Positions 17,015 through 59,771 of a stretch of DNA of 64,000 bases are shown piece after piece. The stretch is from NCBI GenBank assembly GCA_016783155.1, contig JADHXB010000001.1:1228-65227 (forward strand). The letters are read 5' to 3'. The translations under genes were made by a program, and so were the position numbers. The notes beneath the pieces are model-generated. The model saw only the letters and a list, made by a program, of their open reading frames with translations. It had not been told where the DNA came from and did not search any database. How positions within the stretch are numbered: the first letter of the stretch is position 1; every line of letters starts with the position of its first letter. This stretch comes from Dehalococcoidia bacterium. GTDB lineage: Bacteria > Chloroflexota > Dehalococcoidia > GIF9 > UBA5629.

Positions 17015-17017
17015 GAC

Positions 17018-39883: not shown

Positions 39884-40714
39884 TCAGCGAGACAAGAATA
39901 TGGCTCCTAGGTAGTTGTCTGTCTTCAGTTGAACGTCAATCGTTTTTGCCACGTATCCGGCGCACTTAAGCTGCACTACGTACTTGCCGGCATCAAGGCC
40001 ATCAAATTCGAACTCTCCGTACTTATTGGTCGTTGTGTTCATAGCCTTGCCGCTGGCCCGCTCGGTCAGCGTTACCGTTATCCCCTCCGCACATTCATCC
40101 ATATCCCCATATACCACGCTGCCAGCAATAAAGTGCTTCGGTATGCCTATGTAGTACACTCTCGGCTTGGTCTTAAGTTCGGGATTGAGAACCTCGGTCT
40201 TCCCGGAAGTTAAGATTCTGTAGACTTCGCTTTTGGGGTCATCGAGGTCGCCGAAAATCAAGGCTCCGCTCGGACATACCTGCACGCACCTGGGGGTCTT
40301 ACCCTGCTCAAGCCGGTGGACGCAGAAAGTACACTTTTGTGGAAGCTTCTTTTCTTCATTCCAGAAGATAACGTGATAGGGGCAGGCATCCACTATTTTC
40401 TTTTGAGTAACCGCCTTCTGCGGGTCGATGATCACGATTCCGTCTGGTCGTTTGTAAAGGGCGCCATCACTAGCAGCCTTAATGCAGGGAGCATTGTCAC
40501 AGTGGACGCAAAGAACCGGCATGTGAGCGACTTTTATGAAGGGATGTGAACCTCGTTCTTTGGTATCGATGTTTATCCAGAATTGTCCATGCTTCGGCTG
40601 GGCTGCGGAGTAGGGAGGATAATCATTATCCCAGTGCTCGTCTTTGCAGGCGGTAAAACAGTTATAGCAGCCGGTGCATTTTGGTATATCGATGATCATA
40701 CCCCACTTAGGCAT
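39884..40714 (-). CDS. molybdoenzyme Fe-S beta subunit, pyrogallol-hydroxytransferase small-subunit (BthL)-like
   Basis: 276 aa. Three to four Cys clusters (CTGCYNC, CVHCDNAPC, CPYHV, CTFCVHRL..CVQVCPSGA). The C-terminal ~90 aa form a beta-rich (transthyretin/carboxypeptidase-regulatory-like) domain, as in transhydroxylase beta. Starts 3 nt after the alpha gene. Confidence 0.85.
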   Translation of the reverse strand: MPKWGMIIDIPKCTGCYNCFTACKDEHWDNDYPPYSAAQPKHGQFWINIDTKERGSHPFIKVAHMPVLCVHCDNAPCIKAASDGALYKRPDGIVIIDPQKAVTQKKIVDACPYHVIFWNEEKKLPQKCTFCVHRLEQGKTPRCVQVCPSGALIFGDLDDPKSEVYRILTSGKTEVLNPELKTKPRVYYIGIPKHFIAGSVVYGDMDECAEGITVTLTERASGKAMNTTTNKYGEFEFDGLDAGKYVVQLKCAGYVAKTIDVQLKTDNYLGAIFLSR

Positions 40715-40717
40715 CTT

Positions 40718-43312
40718 TTAAGCTCCTTCCTTCACTATTTCAACCAGGCATGAATTTGGTGCCATACCACAGGCATTCTTAGACATGAAGCGGTGATTGG
40801 TCAGGAGATTAATGCAGCCGCCTTTGTCTGGAGATTCACCCGGTTCGCCAATTGGTTGGTACTCAGCAGAGGATTCATATGAGTGTACCACTCCGGGTGG
40901 GACACGCCCGGTAACCTGAGCAGCACATAATACGGCACCCCGTTCGTTAAAGACCTTTACTATATCTCGGTTCTTGATGCCCCTCTTTTTGGCATCCTCT
41001 TTGTTGATTCGAATCACCCAGTAGTAATGACCATCTTTTGCCTTGATCCGGTGTTCTGGTATCTCGTTCATCCAGCTTTCTTTCCCATCATACATCGTAT
41101 GGAAGCTAAACCGTGGATGTGGTGAGATCAGCTGCAGCGGATATTTTTCATAAAGTTCCTTGGTGTGATGACCTTCCCACGAAGGGATGTACTTGGGAAC
41201 AAGTGGTCTCTCCGGGTCATCAGGATCAAAGCGCTTGAGGCTCTCAGATTCAAACTCGATTTTGCCGGTCTGGGTAGTCAGGTTCCCTTCCCGGTCGGGC
41301 AGGCCTTCTACAGCTCCACCAACAGGCCCCCAGTCCGGTGTATCCCTGTGCCTGTTCTCGGCAAACCATCTGAGTGCCGGCGTTGGTTTATAATCGTCAG
41401 GCAGGGGAACCACATAGTAGCCCTTCTTCTCGAAATCTTCCCAGGAGATGTGTTTCGGTAGATCGGTTACCTCGTACATCCTCTTGACCCGGTCCAATTC
41501 AGTCATGCCTCCCTCGGTGAACTTGTCATAGAAGCCAAGCCGGTCAGCAATCATGGCAAATATATCATAGTCTGACTTTGACTCTCCGAGAGGTTCAATA
41601 CACTTCTTCTCAAAGATGATAATACGGTGGTTTGTCTGATACGAGTTATGAGGTATGTAGCCCGAGCAGTGAGCCCACTCACCAATATCCCACCGTTCAA
41701 AGTTGGTACAGGCGGGAAGTATCAGGTCAGCAAATTGTGCTTCGCCCTCCATCCAGATAGACTGGTTAACCACAAATTCCAGGTTGGGGCTCTGGTACAT
41801 CTTGACCCAACGGTTGGTGTTGTTCATGGTGCCGATATAGGCACCACCATACCGCCAGAACATCTTGCACTCGGAAAATCCATCTTCAGGGTACTTGTAC
41901 TTCTTGAACTGGAATTCAGTAGAGGCACCACAGAACCCCTTGCCTCGCCATTCTTGAGGTGGTTCGCTAATGCACTCGGGAACTAGAATCCGCGGCATAT
42001 GCTGCCCGCCAGGATTGTTAATTGCCGAAGTCACCGGAGCCATAGTCACTCCCCTCTGAATCATCTGGAATCCAGCGGCGCTGTTTAGCGCGTCACCGGA
42101 TATCCCGCCTTCAGCATATCCTGGAAAGAGAAAATTGGCATTAAAGGGAGCACCGCCAGTGGTTGACCAGATATTAATGCCTGGTTTGCCCAGACCCTGC
42201 ATGGCCTGAAGCAGTACCATCATTCTGGCCCATTCGGTTCCGTAGGCGGTTCGGCAGGCTCCTCCCCAGCCACCAAGCCCTCCGGCAGCCAGCATGGTCT
42301 TCTTCTTCGCCCATTCTCTGGCCAGGGCTTTAATCTCCCGAGCTGGTATCCCGGTCTCCTTCTCCGCCCATTCGGGTGTCTTGGGAAAACCACCGTCATC
42401 GCCGAGAATGTAGTCACGCCATTTTTCAAAGCCGTGGGTCCGATTGGCAATGTATTCCTTATCATACAGGTTCTCAGTCATCCATACATAGGCGATAGCT
42501 GCAGCTAAAGCCGTATCGGTACCTGGTCGGGGCGCAAACCATTTATCGCAGAAATTAGTCGCCGTGAAATTATAGTATGGGTCAATAAAGACCATTTTTA
42601 CGCCCAGGTCTTTCAGCCAGAAGCGTCTTGGGGTTGACTCCTGCCCGGAATATATTCCGCTGGTGGATTCGGGGTCACTGGACCAGAACACAATCATTTC
42701 CGTGTTCTTTAAGGCATCTTCCAAAAGGTCATATTGTTCTGGAACCCCCAACCTCCAGGCAAAACCCCAAGTGTGCATAGCACCCCAGTGCCAGCCTTCC
42801 CAGCTGTCCGGGTTGTGGTCACAATAGGTATAGCCGAGGATGCCCATAAATCTGAAATAGGTGCTGTGTCGATAACCTATATTGCCCCAGGTATGGTGTG
42901 AGGAAGCCGTGCTGGCGATAACCCCCGGTCCGTATTTTGTGTGGATACGCTGTATTTCCGAACAAAGAATGTCCAGGGTTTCCTTCCAGCTGATTCGCTC
43001 ATAGCGCGATTTGCCTCTATTCTGCGGATTCCTGTTTCCCTTGGGGTCAAAGTCCACTCTCTTCAGGGGATAGAGGAGCCGGTTAGGTGCATATATTTTT
43101 GCCCTCTCAGTCAATGTATATGGTGAAAGCAACGCTTTTCTGGGAGGAGAGAACTTCTTTCCTCGTGCCTCGATCACCCATGATTTGGCATCATCATCAT
43201 CGAGTTCCAGAGGTTCTATTCGGGTTATTCTGCCATCCTTCACGTAAACATAAACGGGGCCGCCGACAGTACAGTTAGTAAAAACTTGTTCACCATTTGT
43301 CGAATAAGCCAT
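40718..43312 (-). CDS. molybdopterin (DMSO-reductase-family) catalytic alpha subunit, pyrogallol-phloroglucinol transhydroxylase (AthL)-like
   Basis: 864 aa. No twin-arginine signal and no N-terminal Cys4 cluster motif, as in cytoplasmic transhydroxylase alpha. Molybdopterin domains I-IV pattern. Paired with the BthL-like beta. Confidence 0.85.
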   Translation of the reverse strand: MAYSTNGEQVFTNCTVGGPVYVYVKDGRITRIEPLELDDDDAKSWVIEARGKKFSPPRKALLSPYTLTERAKIYAPNRLLYPLKRVDFDPKGNRNPQNRGKSRYERISWKETLDILCSEIQRIHTKYGPGVIASTASSHHTWGNIGYRHSTYFRFMGILGYTYCDHNPDSWEGWHWGAMHTWGFAWRLGVPEQYDLLEDALKNTEMIVFWSSDPESTSGIYSGQESTPRRFWLKDLGVKMVFIDPYYNFTATNFCDKWFAPRPGTDTALAAAIAYVWMTENLYDKEYIANRTHGFEKWRDYILGDDGGFPKTPEWAEKETGIPAREIKALAREWAKKKTMLAAGGLGGWGGACRTAYGTEWARMMVLLQAMQGLGKPGINIWSTTGGAPFNANFLFPGYAEGGISGDALNSAAGFQMIQRGVTMAPVTSAINNPGGQHMPRILVPECISEPPQEWRGKGFCGASTEFQFKKYKYPEDGFSECKMFWRYGGAYIGTMNNTNRWVKMYQSPNLEFVVNQSIWMEGEAQFADLILPACTNFERWDIGEWAHCSGYIPHNSYQTNHRIIIFEKKCIEPLGESKSDYDIFAMIADRLGFYDKFTEGGMTELDRVKRMYEVTDLPKHISWEDFEKKGYYVVPLPDDYKPTPALRWFAENRHRDTPDWGPVGGAVEGLPDREGNLTTQTGKIEFESESLKRFDPDDPERPLVPKYIPSWEGHHTKELYEKYPLQLISPHPRFSFHTMYDGKESWMNEIPEHRIKAKDGHYYWVIRINKEDAKKRGIKNRDIVKVFNERGAVLCAAQVTGRVPPGVVHSYESSAEYQPIGEPGESPDKGGCINLLTNHRFMSKNACGMAPNSCLVEIVKEGA

Positions 43313-43502: not shown

Positions 43503-43733
43503 TTATCTGGTAGGTTGACTTGCTTTCTGGCTGTTTCCTTTCTGAGTTTTCCCGAAAGCTTCCTTCTCAGGTACACCTAGGTAAAAGCCTGATTTTGAGG
43601 CGAACGCTGAGATCAACTTTTCACCCTGAGTTCCACATGGGGGACAAAAAGCTGGCTTGTCAGCTTGGCTCATTAGGCGCATTAAATCGAACTCCCTTCC
43701 GCACTTGGGGCAGAAGAATTCATATATAGGCAT
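43503..43733 (-). CDS. FmdB-family zinc-ribbon protein
   Basis: 76 aa. MPIYEFFCPKCGREFD...CPPCG, the canonical FmdB CxxC...CxxC ribbon. Directly upstream of the alpha gene. Confidence 0.75.
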   Translation of the reverse strand: MPIYEFFCPKCGREFDLMRLMSQADKPAFCPPCGTQGEKLISAFASKSGFYLGVPEKEAFGKTQKGNSQKASQPTR

Positions 43734-44017
43734 TGGGCTTTCTCACATGCGTACGACTATAGTTGCTTCGGTATCAGAAAGCTGTTGACCTCGGAGAGGT
43801 GTTCCGGGCATAATTAGGAAATATCGCTGGGCGCCGTCTCTGCCAGAGACACTAACACCATATTCATCGGTAACGGTCAACGCTCTCGCCCCGCTATCTG
43901 TCCACTCCCCTACCAATCGGTTAGGCACAGCTATGCTGATCCCATGCGTTCCATCCCGTATAGTCGCTACTCTAACCGTTATGCTAGCTTCACGCCCTTG
44001 TTAACAGCAGTGTGTTA

Positions 44018-44374
44018 CTATTGCCGCGGAGGTGCCATCCACACGACGAACCTGAGAGTTTCTGTTCCTATTGGCTTAATGCCGTGTTTGGCTCCTGGGG
44101 GAATATAAAGGCAATCACCAGGCTCTACCTTAATTTCCTCACCCTCAACCTTGGCCAGTCCTCTTCCAGAGAGAATGAAATAGGCATGCTCAGAAATTGG
44201 GTGGACATCCTCTTCGGCTTCCCCACCTGGGCGAATTTCGGTGAGGAAGAACTCGATGCTCTTGCACCCAACCGTAGCTTTATTCGCCAAAACAAAGGCA
44301 TCCGTGTTAGTGTGTTTTGGTGGACAAACTGACTGGACATCCCTCATCCGCCTTAAAATTGCTTTGTCTGCCAT
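44018..44374 (-). CDS. cupin-domain protein
   Basis: 118 aa. HxH...E...H-type cupin_2 pattern (HPISEHAYFILSGRG...PPGAKHG). Confidence 0.7.
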   Translation of the reverse strand: MADKAILRRMRDVQSVCPPKHTNTDAFVLANKATVGCKSIEFFLTEIRPGGEAEEDVHPISEHAYFILSGRGLAKVEGEEIKVEPGDCLYIPPGAKHGIKPIGTETLRFVVWMAPPRQ

Positions 44375-44424
44375 ATCAGTAATCTCCTCCTTTTTTATTT
44401 AGAATCTTATTTAACTGCAAATTT

Positions 44425-45309
44425 CTAATGCTTTATGCCTGCAACTTCCTCCATTAGCATAACTAAGGCTGAAAAATCCAAATCGCCTTTACCTGTTGCC
44501 TGAAGCATGCCGAGAAATTGACGTACTAGGGCAATGGTAGGCATAGGTGCTCCTAGTTTTTGCCCGGCGGCAAGAGCCAGGTCAAAGTCCTTTGCCATCA
44601 TGGACACAGTAAACGCTGGGGCAAAACTTCGCTTAGCCAGTGGTCCAACCTTGTAGCCAACAAGTGGTGAGGCTACAACGCTGTTTGCGATAATGTCTAA
44701 CAACTGCTCCCACTGCAGGCCTGCTTTTTCGCCAAAAGTTACTGCTTCAGCCAGCATCTGTAAGGTTGTCCCTACCATCATATTCAGGACAAGCTTGAGA
44801 TAACGTGCCTCATCTCCAGTTCCCACGTGGAACATTTTTTGCCCCATGGCACCAAAGATATCCTGACAATTATCATATGCCTGTTTATCTCCTGAAACAA
44901 AGATAGTCAACTTGCCGCCTGCTGCCAGTACAGTGCTCCCGGATACTGGTGCTCGGAGCATTTTCACTCCTTTCGCCTCTGCTGCTTTGGCTACCTCGGC
45001 AGAACTCTCGGGGTCAACAGTGCTCATGTCAACCAAGATACTTCCTGATTTGGCGCCAGCAAGAGCTCCATTAGCGCCCAGAGTCATCTCTTTCAGGACA
45101 GGGCCATCTGAAATCATAGTGATGGTCACGTCTGATTGGTCAGCTACTTCTTTGGGAGAACCAGCAACCTTGGCACCCTTTTTGGCTAGCTCCTCTGTCT
45201 TGGCTTTTGTCCGGTTCCACACCGTAAGGGAAAAGCCGGACTCCAGCAGTCTCCCCGCCATGGGTTGCCCCATAGTTCCCAAACCAATAAACCCTACTTT
45301 CTTGCTCAT
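44425..45309 (-). CDS. NAD(P)-dependent beta-hydroxyacid dehydrogenase (3-hydroxyisobutyrate/2-hydroxy-3-oxopropionate reductase family)
   Basis: 294 aa. N-terminal GFIGLGTMGQPMAGRL Rossmann motif and 6PGDH-like C-terminal domain. Confidence 0.85.
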   Translation of the reverse strand: MSKKVGFIGLGTMGQPMAGRLLESGFSLTVWNRTKAKTEELAKKGAKVAGSPKEVADQSDVTITMISDGPVLKEMTLGANGALAGAKSGSILVDMSTVDPESSAEVAKAAEAKGVKMLRAPVSGSTVLAAGGKLTIFVSGDKQAYDNCQDIFGAMGQKMFHVGTGDEARYLKLVLNMMVGTTLQMLAEAVTFGEKAGLQWEQLLDIIANSVVASPLVGYKVGPLAKRSFAPAFTVSMMAKDFDLALAAGQKLGAPMPTIALVRQFLGMLQATGKGDLDFSALVMLMEEVAGIKH

Positions 45310-45522: not shown

Positions 45523-46752
45523 TCAATAAGCCATGGATCCAGGAAGCCCGCAAGAGATCAGTTCGTCACAAGGGAACTTAAACAGTCTTTCGCATCCGTC
45601 TTTGGTGACCATAACCTCCTCTTCAATTCTGGCTGCTCCATTTCCATCCGCGGATTGGCAATAAGTTTCGAGAGCGAATGTCATTCCTTCTTTAATAGGA
45701 AACGGTTTATCTAACGAAAAGAGCCTGGATATAACTGGTTTCTCCCAAATGCTCATTCCAACACCATGGCCAAATTGAAGCAAAAATGCCTCGCGTTCAT
45801 CTTTAAATCCGAATTCTTCCGCTTTGGGCCAGCATTTTGCTACGTCCGCCGTGGTTGCTCCGGGCTTGACTGCGTCCATAGATTTTTTCAACCATGTCCA
45901 GGCTTTTTCATAAGCCTCAAGTTGTGCTTTGGAGGGCTTGCCACAGATGAAGGTGCGATAATAACACGTTCGATAGCCATTAAAAGAGTGCATAATATCC
46001 AGGAAAACCATGTCTCCCGGCCGGATAATCCTATCGCCAAAAGTGTGGGGGTGAGGTTGAGCTCGAGGTCCAGAAACACTGTTCACACACTCTACCAGAT
46101 CAGACCCGAGGGTGAACAGCAAATGGTTGGCGATTGCAACCAGGTCATTTTCCCGTATCCCTGGTCTAATATTCTTAACAATTTCTGCGTAGGCTGCGTC
46201 CACCATGGCGCAGGCAAGCTTTAAGAGCTCAATTTCGTCTTTGGTCTTGATGATCCTGGCATCCAACATTGCCTGCTGGCCATCTACTACCTTTACATTC
46301 TCTTTTTCCAGCGACCTGAGAAACGGAACATCTACAATGTCAACACCCAGCGGGTCGTTGGCTACTCCGTAATCTGAAAGGACTTTTTTTACTGACTTAG
46401 CTAAGGCTTCGACATTTCCCACCTCAGGTGGTATGGCACCTCTCATCGACCCAACCGCAGGGAAAACCCGGTCAGCTATCCATGGTGCGCTCTTTCGCTT
46501 TGCCGGGGCAGCCGGGTCATAGAGAAGAGGGTCTGAATCCTTGGGGAGAATCACGTATCGCTGCATTTTATTCCTGGCCCATTCTCCCACATGGGTTCCA
46601 GTAATATAGCGGATATTGTCAAAATCGTAGCATAGGATGGCTCCTAGGCCGTGTGCCTTAAGCTGCTCTTTCGCTTTTGCCAAACGTTCCCGGCGCAACC
46701 TGTCATAGTTAATTCTCTCTTCAAAGTCAACCGCCATAGTGCCAACGGTCAT
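45523..46752 (-). CDS. M24-family metallohydrolase (creatinase/Xaa-Pro aminopeptidase-like; creatinase_N + pita-bread fold)
   Basis: 409 aa. Creatinase-N-like first ~150 aa, then M24 metal-ligand pattern (D..D..H..E..E contexts: FLDIMHSFNGY, FGHGVGMSIWE, ALETY). Confidence 0.75.
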   Translation of the reverse strand: MTVGTMAVDFEERINYDRLRRERLAKAKEQLKAHGLGAILCYDFDNIRYITGTHVGEWARNKMQRYVILPKDSDPLLYDPAAPAKRKSAPWIADRVFPAVGSMRGAIPPEVGNVEALAKSVKKVLSDYGVANDPLGVDIVDVPFLRSLEKENVKVVDGQQAMLDARIIKTKDEIELLKLACAMVDAAYAEIVKNIRPGIRENDLVAIANHLLFTLGSDLVECVNSVSGPRAQPHPHTFGDRIIRPGDMVFLDIMHSFNGYRTCYYRTFICGKPSKAQLEAYEKAWTWLKKSMDAVKPGATTADVAKCWPKAEEFGFKDEREAFLLQFGHGVGMSIWEKPVISRLFSLDKPFPIKEGMTFALETYCQSADGNGAARIEEEVMVTKDGCERLFKFPCDELISCGLPGSMAY

Positions 46753-46938
46753 TTTAATCCCTCCTCAATAAGATTATTATTATGATATCACTTCATTTCT
46801 AATTAACCAAATAACTAGTTAGCACCTCAAGCTCGTAGCGTATTGAGTATTATCGAACAAAGGCAACATAAGAATTTGGGCTTCAATAATTTTGGTGCTT
46901 GTGCCTTGGTTGTTTTAGAAAACTGGCTCACGCCGCCG

Positions 46939-46951
46939 CCCCCCCCCGGGG
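46939..46951. repeat. homopolymeric C9G4 tract in divergent intergenic region
   Basis: Sequence ccccccccc gggg lies between the M24 gene (ends 46752, minus) and the E1-alpha gene (starts 47128, plus). Confidence 0.6.
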
Positions 46952-47127
46952 ATTTTTGGACTATACTCGTATTATAGAAATATGTGTTGGCTGTGTCAAA
47001 GTCTACTAAACTCTGCTCAAATTGACCCACTACCCAAAATTGACAAGGCGGCACTAATCTGACACAATTTTATTCGACTACGACTTTCTATGCCCACTGT
47101 GCTAACCTTCAGAAGAAAGTTGAAGGA

Positions 47128-48108
47128 ATGAATATGCAGAAAATAGGTAGTGAAAAGCTTAAGGAAATTTTTATCAAAATGTTAAGGATCCGTGCCTTTG
47201 AAGAAAGGGCAATTGCGGAATATCGCAAAGGCATCTTACCTGGCTTTATACATTCTTCAATTGGACAAGAGGCAATCCCGTCTTCTGTCTGCGCATTCCT
47301 GAGGGATGATGACTACATCTTGACTACGCATAGAGGCCACGGCGATATCATCGCTAAGGGAGCCAAATTCGATAAGATGATGGCAGAGCTTTATGCCAAG
47401 GAGACAGGGTATAACAAAGGTAGAGGAGGCTCTATGCATATCGTGGCAGCAGACCTCAACATGCTTGGAGCCACCGCAATTGTTGGTGCCGGTGTTCCTA
47501 TAGCCAGCGGCGTTGCACTGGGTTGCAAGATGCAAAACCTCGATAGAGTAACTGTATGCTTCACGGGCGATGCTGCAACTTGTACCGGTGCCTTCCACGA
47601 GGGCGTTGGTCTGGCAGCAATATGGAACCTGCCAGTAATCTTTGTCGTCGAGAACAACCAGTACGGAATGAGCACTCCGGTAAAATATTATTGTAAGCTT
47701 GAGCAACTGTCTGATAGAGCCAAAGCCTACGGGATTCCCGGGGTAACTGTTGACGGAAATGATGCTGAGGCTATTGCCAATGTTGCCAGTGAGGCAATAG
47801 ATAGAGCCAGAAAAGACGGAGGCCCTACCCTTATTGATGCTATCACTTATAGATATTATGGACACCATATGGGCGACCCCGGTACTAGCTATAGGACTAA
47901 AGAGGAAATTGAGGAGTGGAAACGACACGATCCTATCGAAAGATTTCAAGGTCGCCTTTTAAAGGCAAAGGTAATCACTAAATCGGAAATTCAGGAGATC
48001 CAGGCTAGCATAAATAGAGAGCTTGATGAGGCAGTCAAGTTCGCCATGGAGAGCCCGGAACCTAGGATAGAAGATGCCCTTAATAACATCTACTGTCCAT
48101 CAGCATAA
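47128..48108 (+). CDS. 2-oxoacid dehydrogenase E1 alpha subunit (TPP-dependent; pyruvate/acetoin/branched-chain type)
   Basis: 326 aa. TPP-binding GDG...N motif region (GDAATCTGAFHEG...NNQYGMS). Confidence 0.88.
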   Translation: MNMQKIGSEKLKEIFIKMLRIRAFEERAIAEYRKGILPGFIHSSIGQEAIPSSVCAFLRDDDYILTTHRGHGDIIAKGAKFDKMMAELYAKETGYNKGRGGSMHIVAADLNMLGATAIVGAGVPIASGVALGCKMQNLDRVTVCFTGDAATCTGAFHEGVGLAAIWNLPVIFVVENNQYGMSTPVKYYCKLEQLSDRAKAYGIPGVTVDGNDAEAIANVASEAIDRARKDGGPTLIDAITYRYYGHHMGDPGTSYRTKEEIEEWKRHDPIERFQGRLLKAKVITKSEIQEIQASINRELDEAVKFAMESPEPRIEDALNNIYCPSA

Positions 48109-48128
48109 AAGTCAAGGGGGGGGTATAG

Positions 48129-49133
48129 ATGCGAGATTTAACCTACAGAGAAGCAGTACGTGAAGCTCTTGGGGAGGAACTGAGACGCGACAAGTCAGTT
48201 TTCCTTTTGGGTGAAGATATTGCGGAATATAGTGGGGCATACAAGGTAACCCAGGGGCTACTAGAGGAATTCGGTCGAGAGAGGATAAGGAACACAAACT
48301 TAGCTGAATCGGCGATAGCGGGTGCTGCACTGGGAGCCGCCCTGGTAGGCACACGACCAGTGGCTGAAATAATGTACATTGACTTCTCTCTCCTCGCCCT
48401 GGACCAAATCTTCAACCAGATAGCCAAGTTCCGCTACATGACCGGTGGTATGGTAAAGGTACCACTGGTGATTCGGACTCAGGGTGGTGGGGGTAAAGCT
48501 GCAGGACTTCACCATTCCCAATCCCTAGAAGCACTCTATACACATATTCCAGGACTTATAGTGGTTATGCCATCCACTCCTTATGATGCTAAAGGACTGC
48601 TGAAATCAAGCATAAGAGACGATAATCCAGTTATATTTATTGAACACAAGGGGCTTTATAATGAATCAGGTCCGGTTCCTGAGGAAGAGTACATGATACC
48701 ATTGGGGAAAGCAGAAGTTAAACGCCAGGGTAAAGATATCACCGCTGTCGCCTATTCCAAAAGCCTTCTTCTAACCTTGAAAGCTGCCGAAACCCTAGAA
48801 AAATATGGCATTTCTTTGGAGGTAATCGACCCACGGACTCTGAAACCATTAGACCAGGACACTATACTGAATTCAGTAGAGAAGACAAGCAGATTAATGA
48901 TAGTTCACGAAGCTTGTAAAACGGGAGGATTTGGTGCAGAAATAGCCGCTATCGTTGCTGAAAAGGGTATTGACTATTTGGATGCACCGATCAAACGAGT
49001 GGCAGCCTTAGACTCACCTATCCCCTTCAATCCTAGGTTGGAAGATTATGTCCTGCCCAACGAGAATGACATCATCAAGGGAGCATTTGAATTGACGGGT
49101 AAAGAAATACCAGCCGAGCTAAAACTTGGCTAA
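48129..49133 (+). CDS. 2-oxoacid dehydrogenase E1 beta subunit (transketolase-like)
   Basis: 334 aa. Transketolase pyrimidine-binding and C-terminal domains. Sits between E1 alpha and E2. Confidence 0.9.
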   Translation: MRDLTYREAVREALGEELRRDKSVFLLGEDIAEYSGAYKVTQGLLEEFGRERIRNTNLAESAIAGAALGAALVGTRPVAEIMYIDFSLLALDQIFNQIAKFRYMTGGMVKVPLVIRTQGGGGKAAGLHHSQSLEALYTHIPGLIVVMPSTPYDAKGLLKSSIRDDNPVIFIEHKGLYNESGPVPEEEYMIPLGKAEVKRQGKDITAVAYSKSLLLTLKAAETLEKYGISLEVIDPRTLKPLDQDTILNSVEKTSRLMIVHEACKTGGFGAEIAAIVAEKGIDYLDAPIKRVAALDSPIPFNPRLEDYVLPNENDIIKGAFELTGKEIPAELKLG

Positions 49134-49189
49134 ACTAATGCATTAATCTCAAAGGCAAGAACTGATAGAAAACTAGTGGAGATGGAGAG

Positions 49190-50434: not shown

Positions 50435-50452
50435 ACTTAAGAGGTAAAAATA

Positions 50453-51832: not shown

Positions 51833-52538
51833 TCCACAGAGAGGATTCACCTCTAAGACAAGCCTGTGTCAGGTATATGATCTCGGCACAGTTGATTATG
51901 AGAAAGCCCTGCAACTGCAAAATAAGCTGGTGTCAGCCCGCATTGCCGCTGAAATTCCAGATACAATCCTGTTTCTTCAGCACCCTTCAGTACTGACGAT
52001 TGGAGTGTCTGGAAATGAGGAAGGCGTCATTGCCTCGAGAGATCTGCTGGCTCAAGAAAGAATAGCTATCTTCCATATCGACCGCGGAGGAGGCATTACC
52101 TACCATGGCCCAGGGCAGTTAGTAGGATATCCGATTATCGATCTCAGGACAAAAGGAATAGGGCCAACGCAATATGTGCGTCACCTGGAGGAGGTAATCA
52201 TACGAGCCTTGGCTACCTTCTCTATTACTGCCAATCGCGACCCTGAATATCCTGGTGTCTGGGTAGGACAGGACGAGATTTGCGCCCTGGGAATTCGGGT
52301 GATTCACTGGGTCACCATGCACGGATTCGCTCTGAATGTGAACACCGACCTGAAGTACTTCACCTACATTACTCCTTGCGGTATTACCGATAGGCAGGCA
52401 ACCTCGATGTCGCGGTTGCTGGCACACGACATTGCTTTAGAGAATGTAGTTCCGTGTATAATTGAGCAGTGGGCACAGGTTTTTAATATGAAGATTAGGC
52501 AAGAATCTGCCGAGGAGCTATTACGCTATGTCCAGTAA
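51804..52538 (+). CDS. lipB: lipoyl(octanoyl) transferase
   Basis: 244 aa. HIDRGGGITYHGPGQLVGYPI matches the LipB active-site region. Overlaps the E3 3' end, so the true start may be later. Confidence 0.8.
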   Translation: MLKEKPSIPNPQRGFTSKTSLCQVYDLGTVDYEKALQLQNKLVSARIAAEIPDTILFLQHPSVLTIGVSGNEEGVIASRDLLAQERIAIFHIDRGGGITYHGPGQLVGYPIIDLRTKGIGPTQYVRHLEEVIIRALATFSITANRDPEYPGVWVGQDEICALGIRVIHWVTMHGFALNVNTDLKYFTYITPCGITDRQATSMSRLLAHDIALENVVPCIIEQWAQVFNMKIRQESAEELLRYVQ

Positions 52539-53388
52539 ACATCCAGGGTGGATGATAAAGAAGACTCCATCCACATCCATCATTGCTGAGATGAGCGTGC
52601 TAATCGATGGGCTATCGCTTCATACCGTCTGTCAGAGTGCTCTATGCCCCAACCTGGGGGAGTGTTTTTCGCATCAAACTGCTACCTTCCTGATCATGGG
52701 AAATATTTGCACTCGTAATTGCAGTTTTTGTGCTATCAACAAAGGAAAAGGTTTTGCCCTTGATCCAGATGAGCCCTGGAACGTCGCCCGGGCCGTCAGT
52801 AAACTGAAGTTGCACCATGTCGTCGTTACTTCAGTAACCAGGGACGACCTTCCCGATGGAGGAGCCACACACTTCACCAGAACGATAAACGCCATCAGGC
52901 AAACCAGTCCCCAGGCTACCATCGAGGTTCTCATTCCTGATTTTAAGGGCTCCCTCGAGGCGCTCAAAACTGTTGTGGATAGCTCCCCAGAAGTTGTCAA
53001 TCATAATGTGGAAACTGTGCCACGCCTATACTCCGAGGTACGCCCCAAAGCTGATTACCATCGCTCCTTGAATCTATTACGGACAGTGAAATCCCTGAAC
53101 AGAAACATATTAACCAAATCTGGGCTGATGGTGGGGTTGGGAGAGGAACATGACGAGATAGTAAATGTAATGGAAGAGCTCCGCACAGTACAGTGTGATT
53201 TCCTGACTATCGGACAATACCTGGCACCATCACCGAAGCACTACCCAGTGGCAAGGTATGTTACTCCCCAGGAGTTCGAAGAGTATAAGAGCTTAGGGGA
53301 GAGGATGGGCTTTAGCTATGTAGCGTCAGGCCCCTTCGTGCGTAGTTCTTTCAGGGCAGCGGAAATGGTGGCATCTAAGCCGCATTAA
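52528..53388 (+). CDS. lipA: lipoyl synthase (radical SAM)
   Basis: 286 aa. CPNLGEC auxiliary cluster motif and CTRNCSFCA radical-SAM CxxxCxxC motif. Confidence 0.9.
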   Translation: MSSKHPGWMIKKTPSTSIIAEMSVLIDGLSLHTVCQSALCPNLGECFSHQTATFLIMGNICTRNCSFCAINKGKGFALDPDEPWNVARAVSKLKLHHVVVTSVTRDDLPDGGATHFTRTINAIRQTSPQATIEVLIPDFKGSLEALKTVVDSSPEVVNHNVETVPRLYSEVRPKADYHRSLNLLRTVKSLNRNILTKSGLMVGLGEEHDEIVNVMEELRTVQCDFLTIGQYLAPSPKHYPVARYVTPQEFEEYKSLGERMGFSYVASGPFVRSSFRAAEMVASKPH

Positions 53389-53510
53389 GGCACACAAGAT
53401 GGATTGCGGATAAGCAAGTAACCTTTATGCAATTTAACTAAATCTACGAATCGAGATATTCGAAGTAGTGAACTCTGCAGCCAGCTAGGTATATAAGAGA
53501 AGGGAAAAAG

Positions 53511-55274
53511 ATGAAAGGGTTTTTTAATAAAGTACTACATGTGGATTTAACTGGTCGAACCTACTGGGTGGAAGAGCTAAAAGACGAGGCATTATCTTCC
53601 TGGCTAGGAGGGCGAGGGTTGGGCTGCTATCTTCTCTGGAAGACCCTGAAAACGGGCATCGATCCCCTATCTCCCGAGAATTCACTCATTTTTGCCACAG
53701 GTCCAGCTGCAGCAACAAAAATGCCAGGATCCAGCCGCTACGGCGTCTATAGTAAATCACCCCTGACCAATTTTTTCGCTGATTCCTATGCCGGAGGTCA
53801 TCTCGCTCCGCAGATGAAAAAAACTGGTTACGATGCTATTATCGTTCATGGGGCCTCCTCGTCGCCAGTGTTCCTGGAAATCTCATCCGATGGAGCTAGA
53901 TTTTGGGATGCTTCTGACCTATGGGGAAATAGCACCTACGAGACAGAGGAGCAATGTCTGAGCAAAGTTAACATCCCTGGAGCCCAGGCTTTGGTAATCG
54001 GCCCTGCTGGTGAGAATCTGGTAAGATTTGCTTGTATTGTGAACAATCGCTGGCGTAATGCCGGCCGAACAGGGATGGGAGCAATCATGGGCTCCAAGAA
54101 GCTCAAGGCCATGGTCTTTCACGGAGAAAAGGAATGTGAAATAGCCGATCCAGGATTGCTGGATAGTCTGGTACATGACCTTACAGAGCGAGGAAAAAAC
54201 GACCCTACAGTTCGAAGGTACCGGGAATTGGGGACACCAATGCTGGTGGCAACAACTAATCTGGCTGGCGCTTTTCCTGCTGAGTATTGGTCGAAGGGAA
54301 CACTTCCGGGATGGGAAAAGATTTCTGCAGAAACTATGCAAAGAGATTTCGAGGTAAAAGCAAGGGCTTGTACACGTTGCTTTCTTGCTTGCGGGAAACT
54401 AACCACAGTAACCCAGGGAAGACACAGGGGGCTGACTCTTGAAGGGCCAGAGTACGAGACCATTTATAGTTTCGGAGGCTTATGCAAGATCCTGGATCTG
54501 GCAGAAATCATATACCTGAATGACATCTGTGATAGGCTCGGAATAGATACCATAACTGCCGGTAATATAGTGGCTTTCTGCATGGAGTTATCCAAGAGAG
54601 GAAAACTTTCTGAAAAGGTTGATTATGGTAATCCCGACCATGCTGCGGAGTTGCTACACAAAATTTGCCAGAGGGAAGGATTGGGTGATACGCTGGCAGA
54701 AGGGATAAATAAAGCGAGTCAAGTTCTGGGTGCCGAAGACCTGGCTATCCATGTTAAAGGATTAGAGCCGGCTGGATATGACCCCCGCGTGCTTAAAGGT
54801 ATGGCACTCGGTTATGGTATATCACCACGCGGAGCCTGTCACCTGCCAGCAACATATTATATCTTTGAACTACGCGGGGTAGTAAATCCATCAGAAATAC
54901 AAGGAAAAGCAGAGTCGTACATTGGTTATGAAGACAGGCTTACAATTATGGATACCATGATTCTCTGTCGGTTCTTTAGGGACATGATCGGTTGGCCAGA
55001 GTTAATTAAGCTTATCAAAGCTACGACTGGTTTGGAATTCGATGAGTCAGGGCTAAGAGAGCTAGCTAATAATATAACTACCCTGAGGCATTTAATAAAC
55101 ATCCGGGAAGGATGGAACAAAGAAAATGATATGCTGCCAGCACGCTTATTAGATGAGCCCATCAATGGGCATCGGGTTACCAAAGACGAGCTTAACTACA
55201 TGGTGAATGAATACTATCAACTAAGGGGTTGGGATGAGGATGGTAAACCACTTAAAGAGCTTAGCATTGAGTAA
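53511..55274 (+). CDS. aldehyde:ferredoxin oxidoreductase family protein #4 (shorter, divergent paralog)
   Basis: 587 aa. MKGFFNKVLHVDLTGRTYWVEE N-terminus and AOR-like domain order, but clearly more divergent than AOR #1-3. Confidence 0.82.
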   Translation: MKGFFNKVLHVDLTGRTYWVEELKDEALSSWLGGRGLGCYLLWKTLKTGIDPLSPENSLIFATGPAAATKMPGSSRYGVYSKSPLTNFFADSYAGGHLAPQMKKTGYDAIIVHGASSSPVFLEISSDGARFWDASDLWGNSTYETEEQCLSKVNIPGAQALVIGPAGENLVRFACIVNNRWRNAGRTGMGAIMGSKKLKAMVFHGEKECEIADPGLLDSLVHDLTERGKNDPTVRRYRELGTPMLVATTNLAGAFPAEYWSKGTLPGWEKISAETMQRDFEVKARACTRCFLACGKLTTVTQGRHRGLTLEGPEYETIYSFGGLCKILDLAEIIYLNDICDRLGIDTITAGNIVAFCMELSKRGKLSEKVDYGNPDHAAELLHKICQREGLGDTLAEGINKASQVLGAEDLAIHVKGLEPAGYDPRVLKGMALGYGISPRGACHLPATYYIFELRGVVNPSEIQGKAESYIGYEDRLTIMDTMILCRFFRDMIGWPELIKLIKATTGLEFDESGLRELANNITTLRHLINIREGWNKENDMLPARLLDEPINGHRVTKDELNYMVNEYYQLRGWDEDGKPLKELSIE

Positions 55275-55293
55275 ATAGTAAAAAAAATTCTTT

Positions 55294-55908
55294 TCACTCC
55301 TCGTGTGTAGTTCCGGGATTATGCGGAATTTGAGATACCACGTAAGGGGCTTCGCCCTGGCAGCCAAGGCATATTTCCCCATCAGCAAGCGGATAAGCTT
55401 CTTTACAGCTGGGACAAATGGCAAATCCAGTTCTATGCAGCTTTTTCAGGAAACGGGGTGCAATCTTAACTTGCTGGATACTGCAAATATTTGCTCCGGC
55501 TTCCTTAATCTGTTTCATCAAGAGTTGAGAGTCCTGTTCCTTCTTGGGCTTCAGGTTGAAAAACCAGCTTTTAATCTCGGGCCATGATTCTACCTTAGCC
55601 GAATCCAGAAAAACTCGTATCCCTTTACCATTGTATTTATCGTAAAGAGTCATGGCATAACGGCCCATATTGATGACTCTAAGCCAGCCGTTCCCGACAG
55701 TGCAGGGCGTGAGAAGCTGTATGGCATCTGGTAGACAGTGGGCAGTTTCGCTGATAGCATCAAATAGTCCTTCTTCAGGAAGGTGCTGGTACGCTAGATC
55801 TATCATAAACCCGCCAATGATCACGCCCGGAGCGACAAAGCCATGGAAGCATTGGATCCGCTCAATATATTCTTCAAAGGTATAGGAACAAATATTCATG
55901 GACACCAC
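55294..55908 (-). CDS. FmdE-family protein with C-terminal zinc ribbon
   Basis: 204 aa. FHGFVAPGVIIGG...ETAHCLPDAIQLLTPCTVGNG matches the FmdE core. C-terminal CPSCK...CLGC ribbon. Lies between AOR#4 and the second Mo-enzyme operon. Confidence 0.75.
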   Translation of the reverse strand: MVSMNICSYTFEEYIERIQCFHGFVAPGVIIGGFMIDLAYQHLPEEGLFDAISETAHCLPDAIQLLTPCTVGNGWLRVINMGRYAMTLYDKYNGKGIRVFLDSAKVESWPEIKSWFFNLKPKKEQDSQLLMKQIKEAGANICSIQQVKIAPRFLKKLHRTGFAICPSCKEAYPLADGEICLGCQGEAPYVVSQIPHNPGTTHEE

Positions 55909-55929
55909 TCTGCAAATAGCTGGAAAATG

Positions 55930-56772
55930 TTAGAGGTAGATCGTCCCAGCATAAAGGCTTTTCTTTAGGTTAACCTCGATGGTTTTTGTGTCATAACCCG
56001 CATAAGCTATCTGGAACGTGTATTTGCCGCTATTTTCTTCAAGGTTGTCAAACTTAAAATCGCCGTAGTTATCGGTCACACACTGGCTAACTTTCTTATT
56101 GGCGGCATTGAAAATGGTTACTGTAGCGCCTTCGGCACATTCATCTTTGCCATCTACCCGGACCGCAACGCTGCCACCGATGAAACATCGGGTAAACCGA
56201 TGCAGATTCTTGTAATAGACACGAGGGCTGGTTTTATGTTCCGGCTGATAGACTTCAAGCTTCTCGGCCTTGATGATTTCCTGCATCTCAGCGTCCTCGA
56301 CACAATGAACGCTTAATGCCCCTGTAGGGCAGGACTCTACACAGCGGGTTTTCATCCAGCCGTCATCGAGCAAATGGGCACAAAAAGCGCATTTTTGAGG
56401 TACTCCGAGCTCCTCGTTCCACCAAATAGCACCATAGGGGCATGCATTGATAACGTTTTTCTGCCCCTTTGCCTTGACTGGGTCAATAATAATGATGCCA
56501 TCAGGTCTCTTGTATATTGCTCCATCCTTAGCTGCTTTGATACACGGTGCATTGGCACAGTGCATGCACGGTACAGGCAGGTAAGCGACATCGATGAAAG
56601 GATACTGTCCTCGTTCCTTTCCGTGGATGTTTATCCATTTTTGTCCACGATTGGGCTGTGGTGCTGAATATCCCGGCCAATCATTGTCCACGTGCTCGTC
56701 CTTGCAAGACAAAAAACAGTTATTACAGTTTCCACATTTTTCTATGTCAATGATCAAATACCATTTCTTCAT
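55930..56772 (-). CDS. molybdoenzyme Fe-S beta subunit, BthL-like, paralog 2
   Basis: Same Cys-cluster layout and C-terminal beta-domain as the 39884-40714 product. ORF track starts at 56817, but alignment to paralog 1 and an AGGA SD favour the MKKWYLIIDIEKC start at 56772, just after the alpha stop. Confidence 0.82.
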   Translation of the reverse strand: MKKWYLIIDIEKCGNCNNCFLSCKDEHVDNDWPGYSAPQPNRGQKWINIHGKERGQYPFIDVAYLPVPCMHCANAPCIKAAKDGAIYKRPDGIIIIDPVKAKGQKNVINACPYGAIWWNEELGVPQKCAFCAHLLDDGWMKTRCVESCPTGALSVHCVEDAEMQEIIKAEKLEVYQPEHKTSPRVYYKNLHRFTRCFIGGSVAVRVDGKDECAEGATVTIFNAANKKVSQCVTDNYGDFKFDNLEENSGKYTFQIAYAGYDTKTIEVNLKKSLYAGTIYL

Positions 56773-56783
56773 TATAGATTTTC

Positions 56784-59771
56784 CTACCCCGTCCATTTCT
56801 CGATTTGCACAAGGCAAGAATTTGCGGCAAAGCTATGCGATTTTTTGATCATTGGCCGACTTGGGGTCAATATATTCATACATCCGCCACGATCTGGTGA
56901 AAGCCCTGGCTCACCTATCGGATCATATATTGCCGCGGATTCATATGAGTGAACAGTCCCGGGGGGAACCCTTTCGGTCACCTGGGCCGCACAGATAACG
57001 GCACCCCGGTCATTGAACACCTTGACCAGGGCGCTCTCTTTGATTCCACGCGCCTCAGCATCCTTCGAGTTGATCCGCACAATCCAGTAGTAATAACCAT
57101 CAATCGGTACTCTGTGGTCCTTTATATCGTTGATCCAGCTATCTTTACCATCGCCCATAGTATGAAAGCTGTACCTTGGATGAGGGGTTATCAATTGCAA
57201 CGGGTACTTTTGAAACAGTTCAGTGGTATGATGACCCTCCCAAGAGGGAATGTATTTGGTCATAACCGGTCTCTCCGGGTCGTCAGGATCGAACCGTTTC
57301 AGGCTGGAACATACAAATTCCAGCTTGCCCGATTGTGTCTGAAGCCCTCTAAATACTTGTTCGGTGTAGTCAGCCGGTAATGGTGCTATCTCCGGTGTGT
57401 CTTTTAGTCTGTCCTCCGCAAACCACCTAAAGGAGACAGGATGTCTTAACTCCTCCTTGGGTGCGGGGACGACATAGTAGCCCTTCTTCAGGAACTTCTT
57501 CCACGACATGACCTTTGGAACATCTGTGGCATCAAATAATCGCTTGCACCAGTCAAATTCAGTTACACCCTCGGAAAATATAGCAGCAAATCCCAGCCTC
57601 TTCGCCAGCTCAAGAAAAATCTGGAAGTCTGATTTTGATTCGCCTAAAGGTTCGATGCACTTGTGCTGCATGAGGATAACACGATGGTTGCACTGATTGA
57701 AGCTATGCTGGACATATCCGCCGCAGTTAGCAAATTCGCTGATATCCCATCGCTCAAAGCTAGTGCAAGCAGGTAGTATAATATCGGCAAATTTGGCTTC
57801 ACCTTCAAACCAGATGGACTGGTTGACTACAAACTCCAAATTGTCGGACCGGTATGCCCTCACATAGCGGTTTGTCTCAGGCATGGTGCCGATATGAGAG
57901 CCTCCGTATTTATAGTACATCTTGATTGGCGGATAGCCAGGTGCCGGATAGTCAAACCTAAGGAACTGGCCTTCAATTGTCTTCGAGTCAGTGGGATAGC
58001 CGTAGGTGTGGCCATCCAGGATTGCCTCTGGAATATTCAGCCGAGGCACCCGCTGATACACCGTGTTAACAGTGGGGAGCTGTGGGAACCGCGAGAAAAG
58101 ACTAACGCCAAGCGCAGTAGCAGCTAGGTCTCCTGACATGCCTCCCTCGGCATAACCCGGGAAATAAAAGCTGGTGTCGAGCGGTGTTCCTTGCTGCATA
58201 CCGCCCATGTTTACTCCGGGTTTGCCCAAGCCCTGCATAGCCATAAGGCAGACCATAGAACGAGCCCATTCATTACCAGTGGCACAGCGGCAGGCGCTGC
58301 CGAAACCGGTTATTCCTCCTGCTGCCAGGTAAGTCCTTTTGGTTCCCCATTCTCTAGCCAGAGCCCTGACATCTTTGGCCGGAATTCCAGCCTCATTTTC
58401 TTGCCATTCAGGAGTCTTGGGGGTTCCGTCTTCTTTGCCCAATATATAGTCTTTCCATTCGTCAAACCCAATCGTATGCCTGGCAACATACTCTTTGTCG
58501 TAAAGACCCTCGGTAATCCAGACATAGGCAATTGCCAAGGCTAGAGAATTACCTGTTGCCGGCCTGGGAGCAAACCACTTGCCGCCGAATAGAGCTGCTG
58601 TATGGTTATAGAATGGATCTATATGTACCATCTTGATACCCAGTTCTTTCAACCATTGACGGCGGACGGTGCCTTCAAAGGCACCGTAGACACCGCTGGT
58701 AGCTTCCGGATCGCTCGACCAGAATACCACCATTTCACATTCTTTAAGGCAATCTTCAACCGTGCCATAGCTCTCTGGGGCACCAAGCCGCATACTGTGC
58801 CCCCAGTGATGCATGGCTCCCCAGTACCATCCCTCCCAGCTGTCCGGATTATGGACGACAGGGGTCCAGCCAACGTTATTAAAAAATCTCAGTCTGATGC
58901 CTAGCCAGTAGCCCAAGTTTCCCCACAAGTGGTGAGACCCACTGCCATTCAGAATTGCCCCTGGGCCATAATTCCTTTTCACACGCTTTATCTCATTAGC
59001 GACAACATCGAGCGCCTCTTGCCAACTGATGCGCTTGTAACCTGAGATTCCCCGGTTCTGGCAATTTCTTTCACCATTCGGGTCAAAATCGACTCGTTTC
59101 ATAGGGTATAAAATTCTGTCCGGTGAATAGATCATAGATTTAAATACCAAGGTATGAGGCGAGATGGTTGTTTTGCGTGGAGGAGTAAAAGCCCTGCCTC
59201 TTGCTTTAATGGTCCAGGGTTTAGCATCACTGTTGTCAAACTCAATGGGTGTGATCCGTATAATCCTACCATCTTTCACATAGACAAAGACCGGACCGCC
59301 ATTGGTATTGCTGGTATATCTGATGACATCTTTACCAACCTTCGTTCCATATTTGGTGCCAGCGTTCAGCATTAGACTCAGTGTCTCCATCCACCAGTAA
59401 CTTAACTCATCGGTACCGTCCAACCATAATTGAAAGCTTTTCATAGCATTAACCATGGCCAGCTGGTCGCGGGGCGGCACAAGGATATCAAGAGCTATTC
59501 GGGCGCTTCCGAAAATCATGGTAACATCAGGGCTGGCATAAATACCGCTCTTGGAAATAACCTTACCATCACGGATAGCAAAATACCTGCCACGTGAATT
59601 GTCCTTGAGCTTTATTTGCACAGTCAGATTTTTCTCCTTAAGCCGACTCTTGAAGAACGGAAACCTCATTGCCGTCAGCCCAAACAGCATCCTCACGCCA
59701 AGAAGTACTATTGAAAAGAGCAGGTTTGCCAGTGGCAATGATTTTGATAATGTATTCACTATTGATTTCAT
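56784..59771 (-). CDS. molybdopterin catalytic alpha subunit, transhydroxylase (AthL)-like paralog 2, with ~130-aa N-terminal extension
   Basis: 995 aa. Residues ~135-995 align with the 864-aa paralog (..[23 protein letters not shown]..). ATG at 59771 has an AGAGGG SD. The extension carries a hydrophobic helix and an SCP2-like stretch. No RR Tat motif. Confidence 0.85.

Follow-up and report, generated by a model that had tools for sequence, protein, structure and literature searches.

We analysed a window of 64,000 nucleotides from a Dehalococcoidia bacterium (contig JADHXB010000001.1, positions 1,228 to 65,227 of the forward strand) that carries two paralogous operons for molybdoenzymes of the pyrogallol transhydroxylase type, each encoding a catalytic (alpha) and an iron-sulfur (beta) subunit. 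The four open reading frames (ORFs), called alpha1/beta1 and alpha2/beta2 here, lie exactly where an original prediction made from the DNA letters had placed them, all on the minus strand (Table 1). Both alphas contain the Pfam domains AhtL-like_1st (PF21423), Molybdopterin (PF00384) and Molydop_binding (PF01568), and the Pfam scan gave no Molybdop_Fe4S4 (PF04879) match in either. In a search of all Protein Data Bank (PDB) chain sequences, alpha1 aligned with chain 4v4c_A at 1166 bits over residues 11–861 and alpha2 at 1127 bits over residues 148–995. This 875-residue chain of solved structure is the large subunit (AthL) of the pyrogallol hydroxytransferase of Pelobacter acidigallici. The next-best solved structures for both were dimethyl sulfoxide (DMSO) and trimethylamine N-oxide (TMAO) reductases at about 250 bits; acetylene hydratase reached 47–66 bits, NarG 46–75, formate dehydrogenase (Fdh) 72–159 and, by its NCBIfam model, EbdA 43–60. 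The family assignment of the original prediction was thus borne out by full-length matches to both solved subunits and by the AhtL-like_1st domain. A grouping with the Nar/Ebd or formate dehydrogenase types was not found: both alphas score by far best on AthL, and the active-site ligand position holds Ser in each, not Asp, Cys or selenocysteine.

The beta subunits matched the small subunit of the same structure, 4v4c_B, at 220 bits (beta1) and at 266 bits over residues 1–263 (beta2), and the alignments extend to residues 254–257. Both contain Fer4_11 followed by a C-terminal CarboxypepD_reg beta-sandwich, in agreement with the predicted ferredoxin-type motifs and C-terminal beta-barrel domain. 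All 12 ferredoxin Cys of 4v4c_B are kept in beta1 and in beta2, where they make up three [4Fe-4S] motifs. The mechanically called ORF of beta2 extends to a TTG at 56817, but the codon that lines up with Met1 of the small subunit in the solved structure is the ATG at 56772.

No twin-arginine (RR) motif and no CxxCxxxC cluster was found in the N-terminus of either alpha, as had been predicted. Since both alpha ORFs are already maximal, with no other start codon between their own and the preceding stop, a twin-arginine (Tat) signal could not appear on start-codon correction. The proposed cytoplasmic location is supported by the lack of a Tat or Sec signal in both alphas, but a purely soluble state is less certain for alpha2, which has an additional N-terminal domain of predicted SCP2 fold with a hydrophobic helix. 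This domain had been overlooked when alpha2 was taken for an ordinary alpha subunit; only from residue ~148 onward is alpha2 homologous to AthL.

Residues 1 to ~147 of alpha2 make up a distinct conserved domain for which the alpha/beta fold of SCP2 is confidently predicted. The domain is kept in all full-length alpha2 relatives, each of about 995–1000 residues, and is conserved more loosely (~50–90% identity) than the catalytic part (~80%); such loose but universal conservation is what a real domain would show. Sequence comparison lends the predicted fold no support. Identity to known SCP2 domains (the human SCP2/MFE-2 domain, Yarrowia SCP2, the C-terminal domain of the alkylsulfatase YjcS, and UbiJ) is only 10–16%, and Pfam SCP2 (PF02036) did not match the alpha2 domain at E<0.01. 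A permissive Pfam scan of 23 members of the domain family gave sub-threshold PF02036 hits in three (best E 0.05), a profile search of PDB with the domain returned noise only, and hmmsearch and hhalign against the two stand-alone SCP2 proteins of the window were negative. AlphaFold2 modelled full-length alpha2 poorly (predicted local distance difference test 50.6, predicted template modelling score 0.37), and only the N-terminal domain stayed confident in that model. The helix at residues 17–35 is hydrophobic in alpha2 (Kyte–Doolittle 2.11), and homologues have a median of four charged residues in the same helix. These charges argue against a transmembrane anchor; a core helix of the fold, or a contact with the membrane periphery, is the likelier reading.

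An exhaustive phmmer search with the domain against 1.84 billion cluster representatives returned 458 proteins; for 162 the match was better than E<1e-10. Almost all are N-termini of AthL-like proteins or fragments thereof, and conservation of the domain persists to ~30–40% identity over hundreds of clusters. Proteins with this architecture, the long clade, were found in Chloroflexota, Syntrophorhabdales, one deltaproteobacterial genome and many Alpha-, Beta- and Gammaproteobacteria, with full-length forms in cultured Burkholderia, Paraburkholderia, Cupriavidus, Ensifer, Rhodoblastus, Bradyrhizobium, Hydrogenophaga and others. When genomes were scanned with proteobacterial-type domains as seeds, 312 loci were obtained, the best 80 of which were all from Alphaproteobacteria. 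One protein, P0324, has the same SCP2-like N-terminal domain joined, by eye, not to a molybdoenzyme but to a protein resembling HIBADH-type dehydrogenases; its dehydrogenase part resembles the HIBADH-type protein encoded upstream of alpha1.

The window pairs share with AthL/BthL of P. acidigallici (PDB 4V4C/4V4D/4V4E) the two-subunit architecture, the three alpha Pfam domains, the Ser ligand position with its neighbouring His, Asp and Tyr, the 12 iron-sulfur Cys, the beta-sandwich and the lack of a signal peptide; the Pelobacter chain has no counterpart of the SCP2-fold domain of alpha2. For pairwise comparison the AthL sequence was rebuilt from HMMER alignments. Full-length identity to AthL is 58% for alpha1 and 57% for alpha2, and the two alphas are 58% identical to each other; beta1 and beta2 are 55% identical to each other and 42% and 46% identical, respectively, to BthL. 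Residue conservation was then read from an alignment of AthL with 120 homologues of each window alpha (240 in total). S175, H144 and Y404 are kept in all 240 homologues and D174 in 237, and all four are present in alpha1 and alpha2. In the structural work of Messerschmidt et al. (2004), S175 is reported to be the Mo ligand and the other three its catalytic neighbours. Y152, W176 and Y560 vary little or not at all across the two homologue sets and are kept in both window alphas. Alpha1 agrees with AthL at every position checked, these seven as well as R153, H154, Y157 and W354. In contrast, alpha2 and its clade differ from AthL at four positions (R153W, H154L, Y157R and W354F), and these substitutions are fixed or nearly so in the 120 long-clade homologues.

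A neighbour-joining tree placed the alpha2-type proteins in one tight monophyletic clade on a long stem. AthL fell into one subclade of the short forms and alpha1 into another, so neither window enzyme lies in the subclade of AthL. These separate clades indicate that alpha1 and alpha2 are old, separately evolving lineages and not the products of a recent duplication. Close relatives of both occur in other phyla: identity is as high as 84% for alpha1-type proteins, in a Bathyarchaeota metagenome-assembled genome (MAG), and 78–81% for alpha2-type proteins, in MAGs of Syntrophorhabdales, Syntrophorhabdaceae and Deltaproteobacteria. This pattern points to horizontal spread of both types. The exact alpha1 and alpha2 proteins were also found on contigs of a MAG labelled Chloroflexi.

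The strongest clue to function is the genomic setting of alpha2 just past the window end, which links it to phloroglucinol breakdown and was out of sight for the original prediction. A contig that is 100% identical to window positions 53529–64000 (L007) extends 4,987 bp further, to ~68.9 kb. Its extension encodes two permeases, a short-chain dehydrogenase/reductase (SDR), a Cyclase-family protein (PF04199), a cupin and a 3HCDH-family protein, located 6–9 kb upstream of alpha2. The phloroglucinol pathway of Clostridium scatologenes, described in 2023 and experimentally reconstituted, uses PGR, DPGC and TfD, followed by a fourth enzyme, TAL, of the BKACE family; the SDR, cyclase-family and dehydrogenase genes of L007 belong to the families of PGR, DPGC and TfD. 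Genes of this pathway lie within 10 kb of the long-clade alpha at five of six loci: that of the window genome and those of a deltaproteobacterial genome, a Syntrophorhabdales MAG and two metagenome contigs. A Peripla_BP_6/ABC transporter, as found in the window, also stands beside the long-form alpha/beta genes at two of these loci (L004 and L005). At alpha1-clade loci phloroglucinol-pathway genes adjoin in three of five cases, including two whose alphas are 90–91% identical to alpha1, and one of the three also has a UbiD-type decarboxylase. Two of the three SDR genes within the window itself (2561–5020) are ~41% identical to the PGR-like SDR of L007.

Taken with the family membership, the conserved ligand and pocket positions and the domain architecture described above, this linkage leads us to favour, with somewhat better than even confidence, the reading that both pairs are cytoplasmic heterodimers of the AthL/BthL family that move hydroxyl groups between phenolic rings without O2. 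The reaction, the substrates and the role of the SCP2-fold domain are what we infer. Because alpha2 has the SCP2-fold domain and an altered pocket, and alpha1 keeps the Pelobacter-type pocket, the two are probably isoenzymes that differ in substrate or co-substrate preference. The distinct specificities proposed in the original prediction are likewise consistent with the 58% identity, the separate clades and the four substituted positions, and are best kept as a proposal. Each alpha would hold a molybdenum-bis(molybdopterin guanine dinucleotide) (Mo-bisMGD) centre ligated by Ser, and each beta three [4Fe-4S] clusters and the beta-sandwich domain. By analogy with the Pelobacter enzyme, hydroxyl transfer would proceed through a tetrahydroxybenzene co-substrate and would convert trihydroxybenzenes (pyrogallol and possibly hydroxyhydroquinone) to phloroglucinol. 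Reduction and ring opening of the phloroglucinol would follow, catalysed by the products of the SDR, cyclase-family and 3-hydroxyacyl dehydrogenase genes found beyond the window beside alpha2, and alpha2/beta2 would be physically coupled to uptake and to these downstream steps. At the start of the route, a set of O-demethylase genes and a candidate decarboxylase in the window would supply trihydroxybenzenes from methoxylated aromatic acids. Starting from hydroxyhydroquinone instead of pyrogallol, as reported by Brune et al., needs several sequential transhydroxylations, which two isoenzymes would fit.

Several observations weigh against this reading. Positions 153 and 354, reported in the 2004 structure paper as residues of the co-substrate site, are both changed in alpha2, which may for this reason not follow the classical co-substrate mechanism. 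A BKACE (TAL) gene was not seen in the DNA of this genome that the analysis covered. Alpha1 does not adjoin phloroglucinol genes in the window and instead faces an operon resembling pyruvate dehydrogenase (PDH). Long-clade enzymes of aerobic Proteobacteria stand in other contexts, either with VOC-family, fumarylacetoacetate hydrolase-family and acyl-CoA synthetase genes or with E1, E2 and aldehyde dehydrogenase genes, in which a role in converting pyrogallol to phloroglucinol is not obvious. In the literature we found no enzyme assay for members of either clade.

A more novel reading concerns the long clade, which may tentatively be viewed as a distinct enzyme class whose members have so far been labelled only 'molybdopterin oxidoreductase' or 'TMAO reductase', and whose SCP2 domain would hold a hydrophobic or redox-active small molecule. 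We regard this as possible but doubtful. The bound molecule may be a captive tetrahydroxybenzene co-substrate, a quinone acceptor or the alkyl tail of alkylated polyphenols. If so, the long-clade enzymes would be self-contained transhydroxylases or quinone-linked, O2-independent phenol hydroxylases, and they would represent a widespread and overlooked route of polyphenol turnover in anoxic sediments and soils.

An alternative which we consider unlikely makes one enzyme, or both, a net oxidising hydroxylase that depends on water. Besides the transhydroxylase, the Ser-ligated RhL/PgtL group is described as having two characterised members, the resorcinol hydroxylase RehLS (RhLS) of Aromatoleum anaerobium and the 3,5-dihydroxybenzoate hydroxylase DbhLS of Thauera aromatica AR-1; both are reported to be membrane-associated net oxidative hydroxylases of nitrate reducers. 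No protein named as RehL or DbhL came up in the homologue searches. An enzyme of this kind would place a hydroxyl group on a dihydroxybenzene and pass the electrons through the beta iron-sulfur clusters to an acceptor. What alpha1/beta1 makes would then pass into an oxidative route formed with the E1/E2/E3 complex, the aldehyde:ferredoxin oxidoreductase (AOR) and the malic enzyme of the window, similar to the bqdLMS ring-cleavage genes, which reportedly lead to acetate and malate; in the long clade, the ligand of the SCP2 domain could be a quinone or a hydrophobic substrate. In A. anaerobium the rehLS genes diverge from bqdLMS, described as a 2-oxoacid dehydrogenase-like set, much as the alpha1-side operon of the window diverges from the E1 operon. 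Arrays of E1alpha, E1beta, aldehyde dehydrogenase and E2 genes directly adjoin long-form alpha/beta pairs in several Alphaproteobacteria, and one such locus (L041) unites an M24-family gene with alpha/beta, E1alpha/E1beta and E2, as the window does. The window M24 protein is ~61% identical to the M24 proteins near long-form pairs in Alphaproteobacteria (L041, L044, L068 and L071). The long clade is also common in respiring Proteobacteria, and iron-sulfur clusters have no obvious role in a redox-neutral reaction. However, the oxidative hydroxyhydroquinone pathway has a dehydrogenase (BtdLS) whose membrane subunit BtdS belongs to the DoxX family, and no DoxX-type homologue was found among the ~60 window ORFs scanned against Pfam. 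The 90–91% identical relatives of alpha1 adjoin phloroglucinol genes, not E1/E2. The E1/E2/E3 set of the window scores as an ordinary PDH and may merely convert pyruvate from the malic enzyme. A single pocket signature is found in all the alphaproteobacterial loci whatever their context, and the adjacency to E1/E2 may for this reason reflect shared ancestry of related genomes.

Less probable again is that the two enzymes are functionally redundant pyrogallol transhydroxylases acquired separately by horizontal transfer, with a purely structural or stabilising role for the SCP2 domain. In other genomes the same downstream phloroglucinol genes accompany both clades, identities of 80–90% between phyla in both clades suggest mobility, and the presumed catalytic residues are all identical. 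Against redundancy stand the four pocket-region positions fixed differently in the long clade, the monophyly and long stem of that clade, and an N-terminal domain kept over so many diverged clusters, which argues for a selected function. An S- or N-oxide reductase of the TMAO, DMSO or biotin sulfoxide reductase type, finally, is highly improbable. Homologue names at JGI include 'trimethylamine-N-oxide reductase (cytochrome c)' and the NCBIfam models bisC_fam and torA match in part, but these matches score 349–364 bits against curated cutoffs of at least 1017, the transhydroxylase structure matches ~4.5 times more strongly than DMSO/TMAO reductases, and the AhtL-specific first domain and a BthL-type partner are present, so that domain, NCBIfam and PDB scores effectively refute the TMAO/DMSO reductase annotation. 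The DmsA model likewise gave partial scores far under its cutoff for both alphas, and since the BisC, TorA and DmsA scores all fall so short, the 'TMAO reductase' names on many homologues are over-annotations. DorA, TorA and BisC are the next-closest solved relatives and share the Ser-ligated Mo-bisMGD and the lack of an N-terminal iron-sulfur cluster; in contrast to the window enzymes they consist of a single subunit or are periplasmic, and both a BthL-type partner and the AhtL-like first domain are missing.

Table 1. Features of the 64,000-nucleotide window, with positions counted from its first letter
Feature	Positions	Strand	Remarks
Alpha1	40718-43312	-	864 residues; short-form AthL-type Mo-bisMGD catalytic subunit
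Beta1	39884-40714	-	276 residues; start codon 3 nt past alpha1 stop
Alpha2, whole ORF	56784-59771	-	995 residues
Alpha2 N-terminal domain, residues 1-~147	59331-59771	-	Predicted SCP2 fold; no Pfam family
Alpha2 catalytic part, residues ~148-995	56784-59330	-	AthL-type Mo-bisMGD subunit, long clade
Beta2	55930-56772	-	280 residues; start 11 nt past alpha2 stop
FmdE-like gene	55294-55908	-	Directly after beta2; PF02663 and PF23475
RidA-family gene	59947-60390	-	Upstream of alpha2
Peripla_BP_6 solute-binding protein	60554-61867	-	Upstream of alpha2
Two ABC ATPase genes	62134-63645	+	Start of divergent transporter/phloroglucinol array running past the window end
FmdB-family zinc ribbon	43503-43733	-	Upstream of alpha1; PF09723; TIGR02605 58.5 bits (cutoff 31.3)
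Small ORF	43743-43928	-	No family match on record; coincides with a gene called in the NCBI MAG
Cupin	44018-44374	-	Upstream of alpha1
HIBADH/tartronate-semialdehyde-reductase-like dehydrogenase	44425-45309	-	Upstream of alpha1
M24 creatinase/prolidase-fold hydrolase	45523-46752	-	Upstream of alpha1
Intergenic region between alpha1-side and E1/E2/E3 operons	46753-47127		375 bp, divergent
E1alpha, E1beta, E2, E3, lipoate ligase, lipoyl-synthase-like radical SAM enzyme, AOR	47128-55274	+	Between the two operons
Small ORF	39587-39856	-	No family match on scan; overlaps a gene called in the NCBI MAG
ACT-domain malic enzyme	38115-39500	+	Convergent with beta1; relevant only to an oxidative (malate-forming) route
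Amidohydrolase_2 (ACMSD superfamily)	36069-37031	-	PF04909; candidate aromatic-acid decarboxylase
Two stand-alone SCP2 genes	21995-22408, 22567-22983	+	Pfam-positive; no detectable sequence relation to alpha2 domain
Two FAD_binding_4 oxidase-type genes around a CCG/Fer4_8 iron-sulfur protein	15410-19799	-	GlcDEF- or lactate-dehydrogenase-like trio
B12-binding corrinoid protein	14054-14686	-	O-demethylase set
URO-D-family methyltransferase	12680-14017	-	O-demethylase set
Met_synt_B12-like protein	11888-12577	-	O-demethylase set
RACo-type corrinoid activase	10001-11887	-	O-demethylase set
Pterin-binding methyltransferase	9156-10001	-	O-demethylase set
Split phosphoenolpyruvate (PEP)-utilising enzyme genes	930-1970, 5116-6831		PPDK_N domain gene and PEP-utilizers mobile-domain gene, around three SDRs

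Zinc-ribbon accessory genes had been proposed for both operons. Both genes are real, FmdB-family upstream of alpha1 and FmdE-like after beta2, but an accessory role has weak support from other genomes. No FmdB gene was seen beside the alpha1-type genes of L006, L009, L010, L011 and the P0233 locus, and FmdE follows beta at two of six long-clade loci, the order alpha-beta-FmdE recurring in L093 (FmdE 66% identical) and being absent from L003, L004, L005 and L092. A NarJ/TorD-type chaperone (Nitrate_red_del, 14361–15083) is encoded two genes after beta in L011, whose alpha is 91% identical to alpha1. None was seen in the window, where the FmdE gene after beta2 is the sole candidate maturation factor. 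Of the two small ORFs flanking alpha1/beta1, the genes called in the NCBI MAG encode 77 residues at 39587–39856 and 61 residues at 43743–43928. The M24 and HIBADH-like proteins encoded upstream of alpha1 were considered for the DPGC and TfD steps and dropped, as DPGC and TfD belong to the cyclase and 3-hydroxyacyl-CoA dehydrogenase families; the HIBADH-like protein is also unrelated to the TfD-like gene of L007.

The intergenic region between the alpha1-side operon and the divergent E1/E2/E3 operon contains a perfect TTGACA-17-TATAAT on the minus strand (46999–46971) and a 10/12 match on the plus strand (47040–47068), both of them consensus matches only. The PDH-type complex, accompanied by a lipoate ligase and a lipoyl-synthase-like gene of its own, occurs here in a seemingly strictly anaerobic Chloroflexi genome. 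Its position and the alphaproteobacterial arrays suggest a link to the molybdoenzymes. Arrays of E1alpha, E1beta and E2 beside long-form alpha/beta were found in the alphaproteobacterial MAG loci L041, L047, L052, L053, L055, L064 and L082, and in the two that are annotated (L041 and L053) an aldehyde dehydrogenase gene lies between E1beta and E2. L041 additionally has genes for a LysR regulator and CobW, and in the Rhodoplanes locus L053 beta is followed by genes resembling those for pyrroloquinoline quinone biosynthesis (PqqB-, PqqC- and PqqE-type Pfam domains). In the cultured aerobes Burkholderia stagnalis (L094) and Ensifer canadensis (L095), the SCP2-fused long form and its beta are encoded on plasmids near genes of the VOC, fumarylacetoacetate hydrolase, acyl-CoA synthetase, TetR and OmpW/outer-membrane transport families, which suggests that the long form serves an aerobic aromatic pathway with hydrophobic substrates there.

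The best solved relatives of the Amidohydrolase_2 protein are non-oxidative decarboxylases (ACMSD, LigW and the gamma-resorcylate and 2,3-dihydroxybenzoate decarboxylases), and we infer that this candidate decarboxylase is part of the system. The left half of the window holds the corrinoid O-demethylase genes, CoA ligases and three further AORs; the four AOR paralogs named in the original prediction (at 7277, 24594, 33788 and 53511) are all real by family scan. The O-demethylase set looks complete and could supply hydroxylated rings from methoxylated aromatics. The arrangement of split PEP-utilising genes around SDRs is reminiscent of phenylphosphate-synthase-type systems, and the FAD_binding_4 trio adjoins an AMP-binding CoA ligase. 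The stand-alone SCP2 genes adjoin genes for an Fe-alcohol dehydrogenase, an AOR, CoA ligases, a thiolase and a ChsH2-like zinc-ribbon/OB protein. No Rfam match, to a molybdenum cofactor riboswitch or any other RNA, was found anywhere in the window.

Two operons of this kind are largely expected for sediment Chloroflexi, and the basic finding is already known: two AthLS operons have been reported in RBG-2 and RBG-1351 and three copies in DEH-C11 (Hug, 2013; Wasmund, 2016). The chemistry is likewise the expected one unless the extra domain changes it. The SCP2-fold fusion, the clade-specific pocket and the cross-phylum linkage of the long clade to the phloroglucinol pathway appear to be undescribed; in the literature searched we found no mention of the SCP2-like domain or of its fusion to a molybdoenzyme catalytic subunit. 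In anoxic sediments and peat, carbon from tannin and lignin is either preserved or respired, and the conversion of plant polyphenols without O2 is among the deciding steps. A single island of a sediment Chloroflexi genome here holds much of such a route, with O-demethylation genes, a candidate decarboxylase and two transhydroxylase-type enzymes, and with a transporter and the phloroglucinol pathway beside alpha2. If the SCP2 domain does bind a co-substrate, a quinone or a hydrophobic substrate, the long clade would constitute a new subclass of molybdenum hydroxyl-transfer enzymes, and the same finding would correct many 'TMAO reductase' annotations in the databases.

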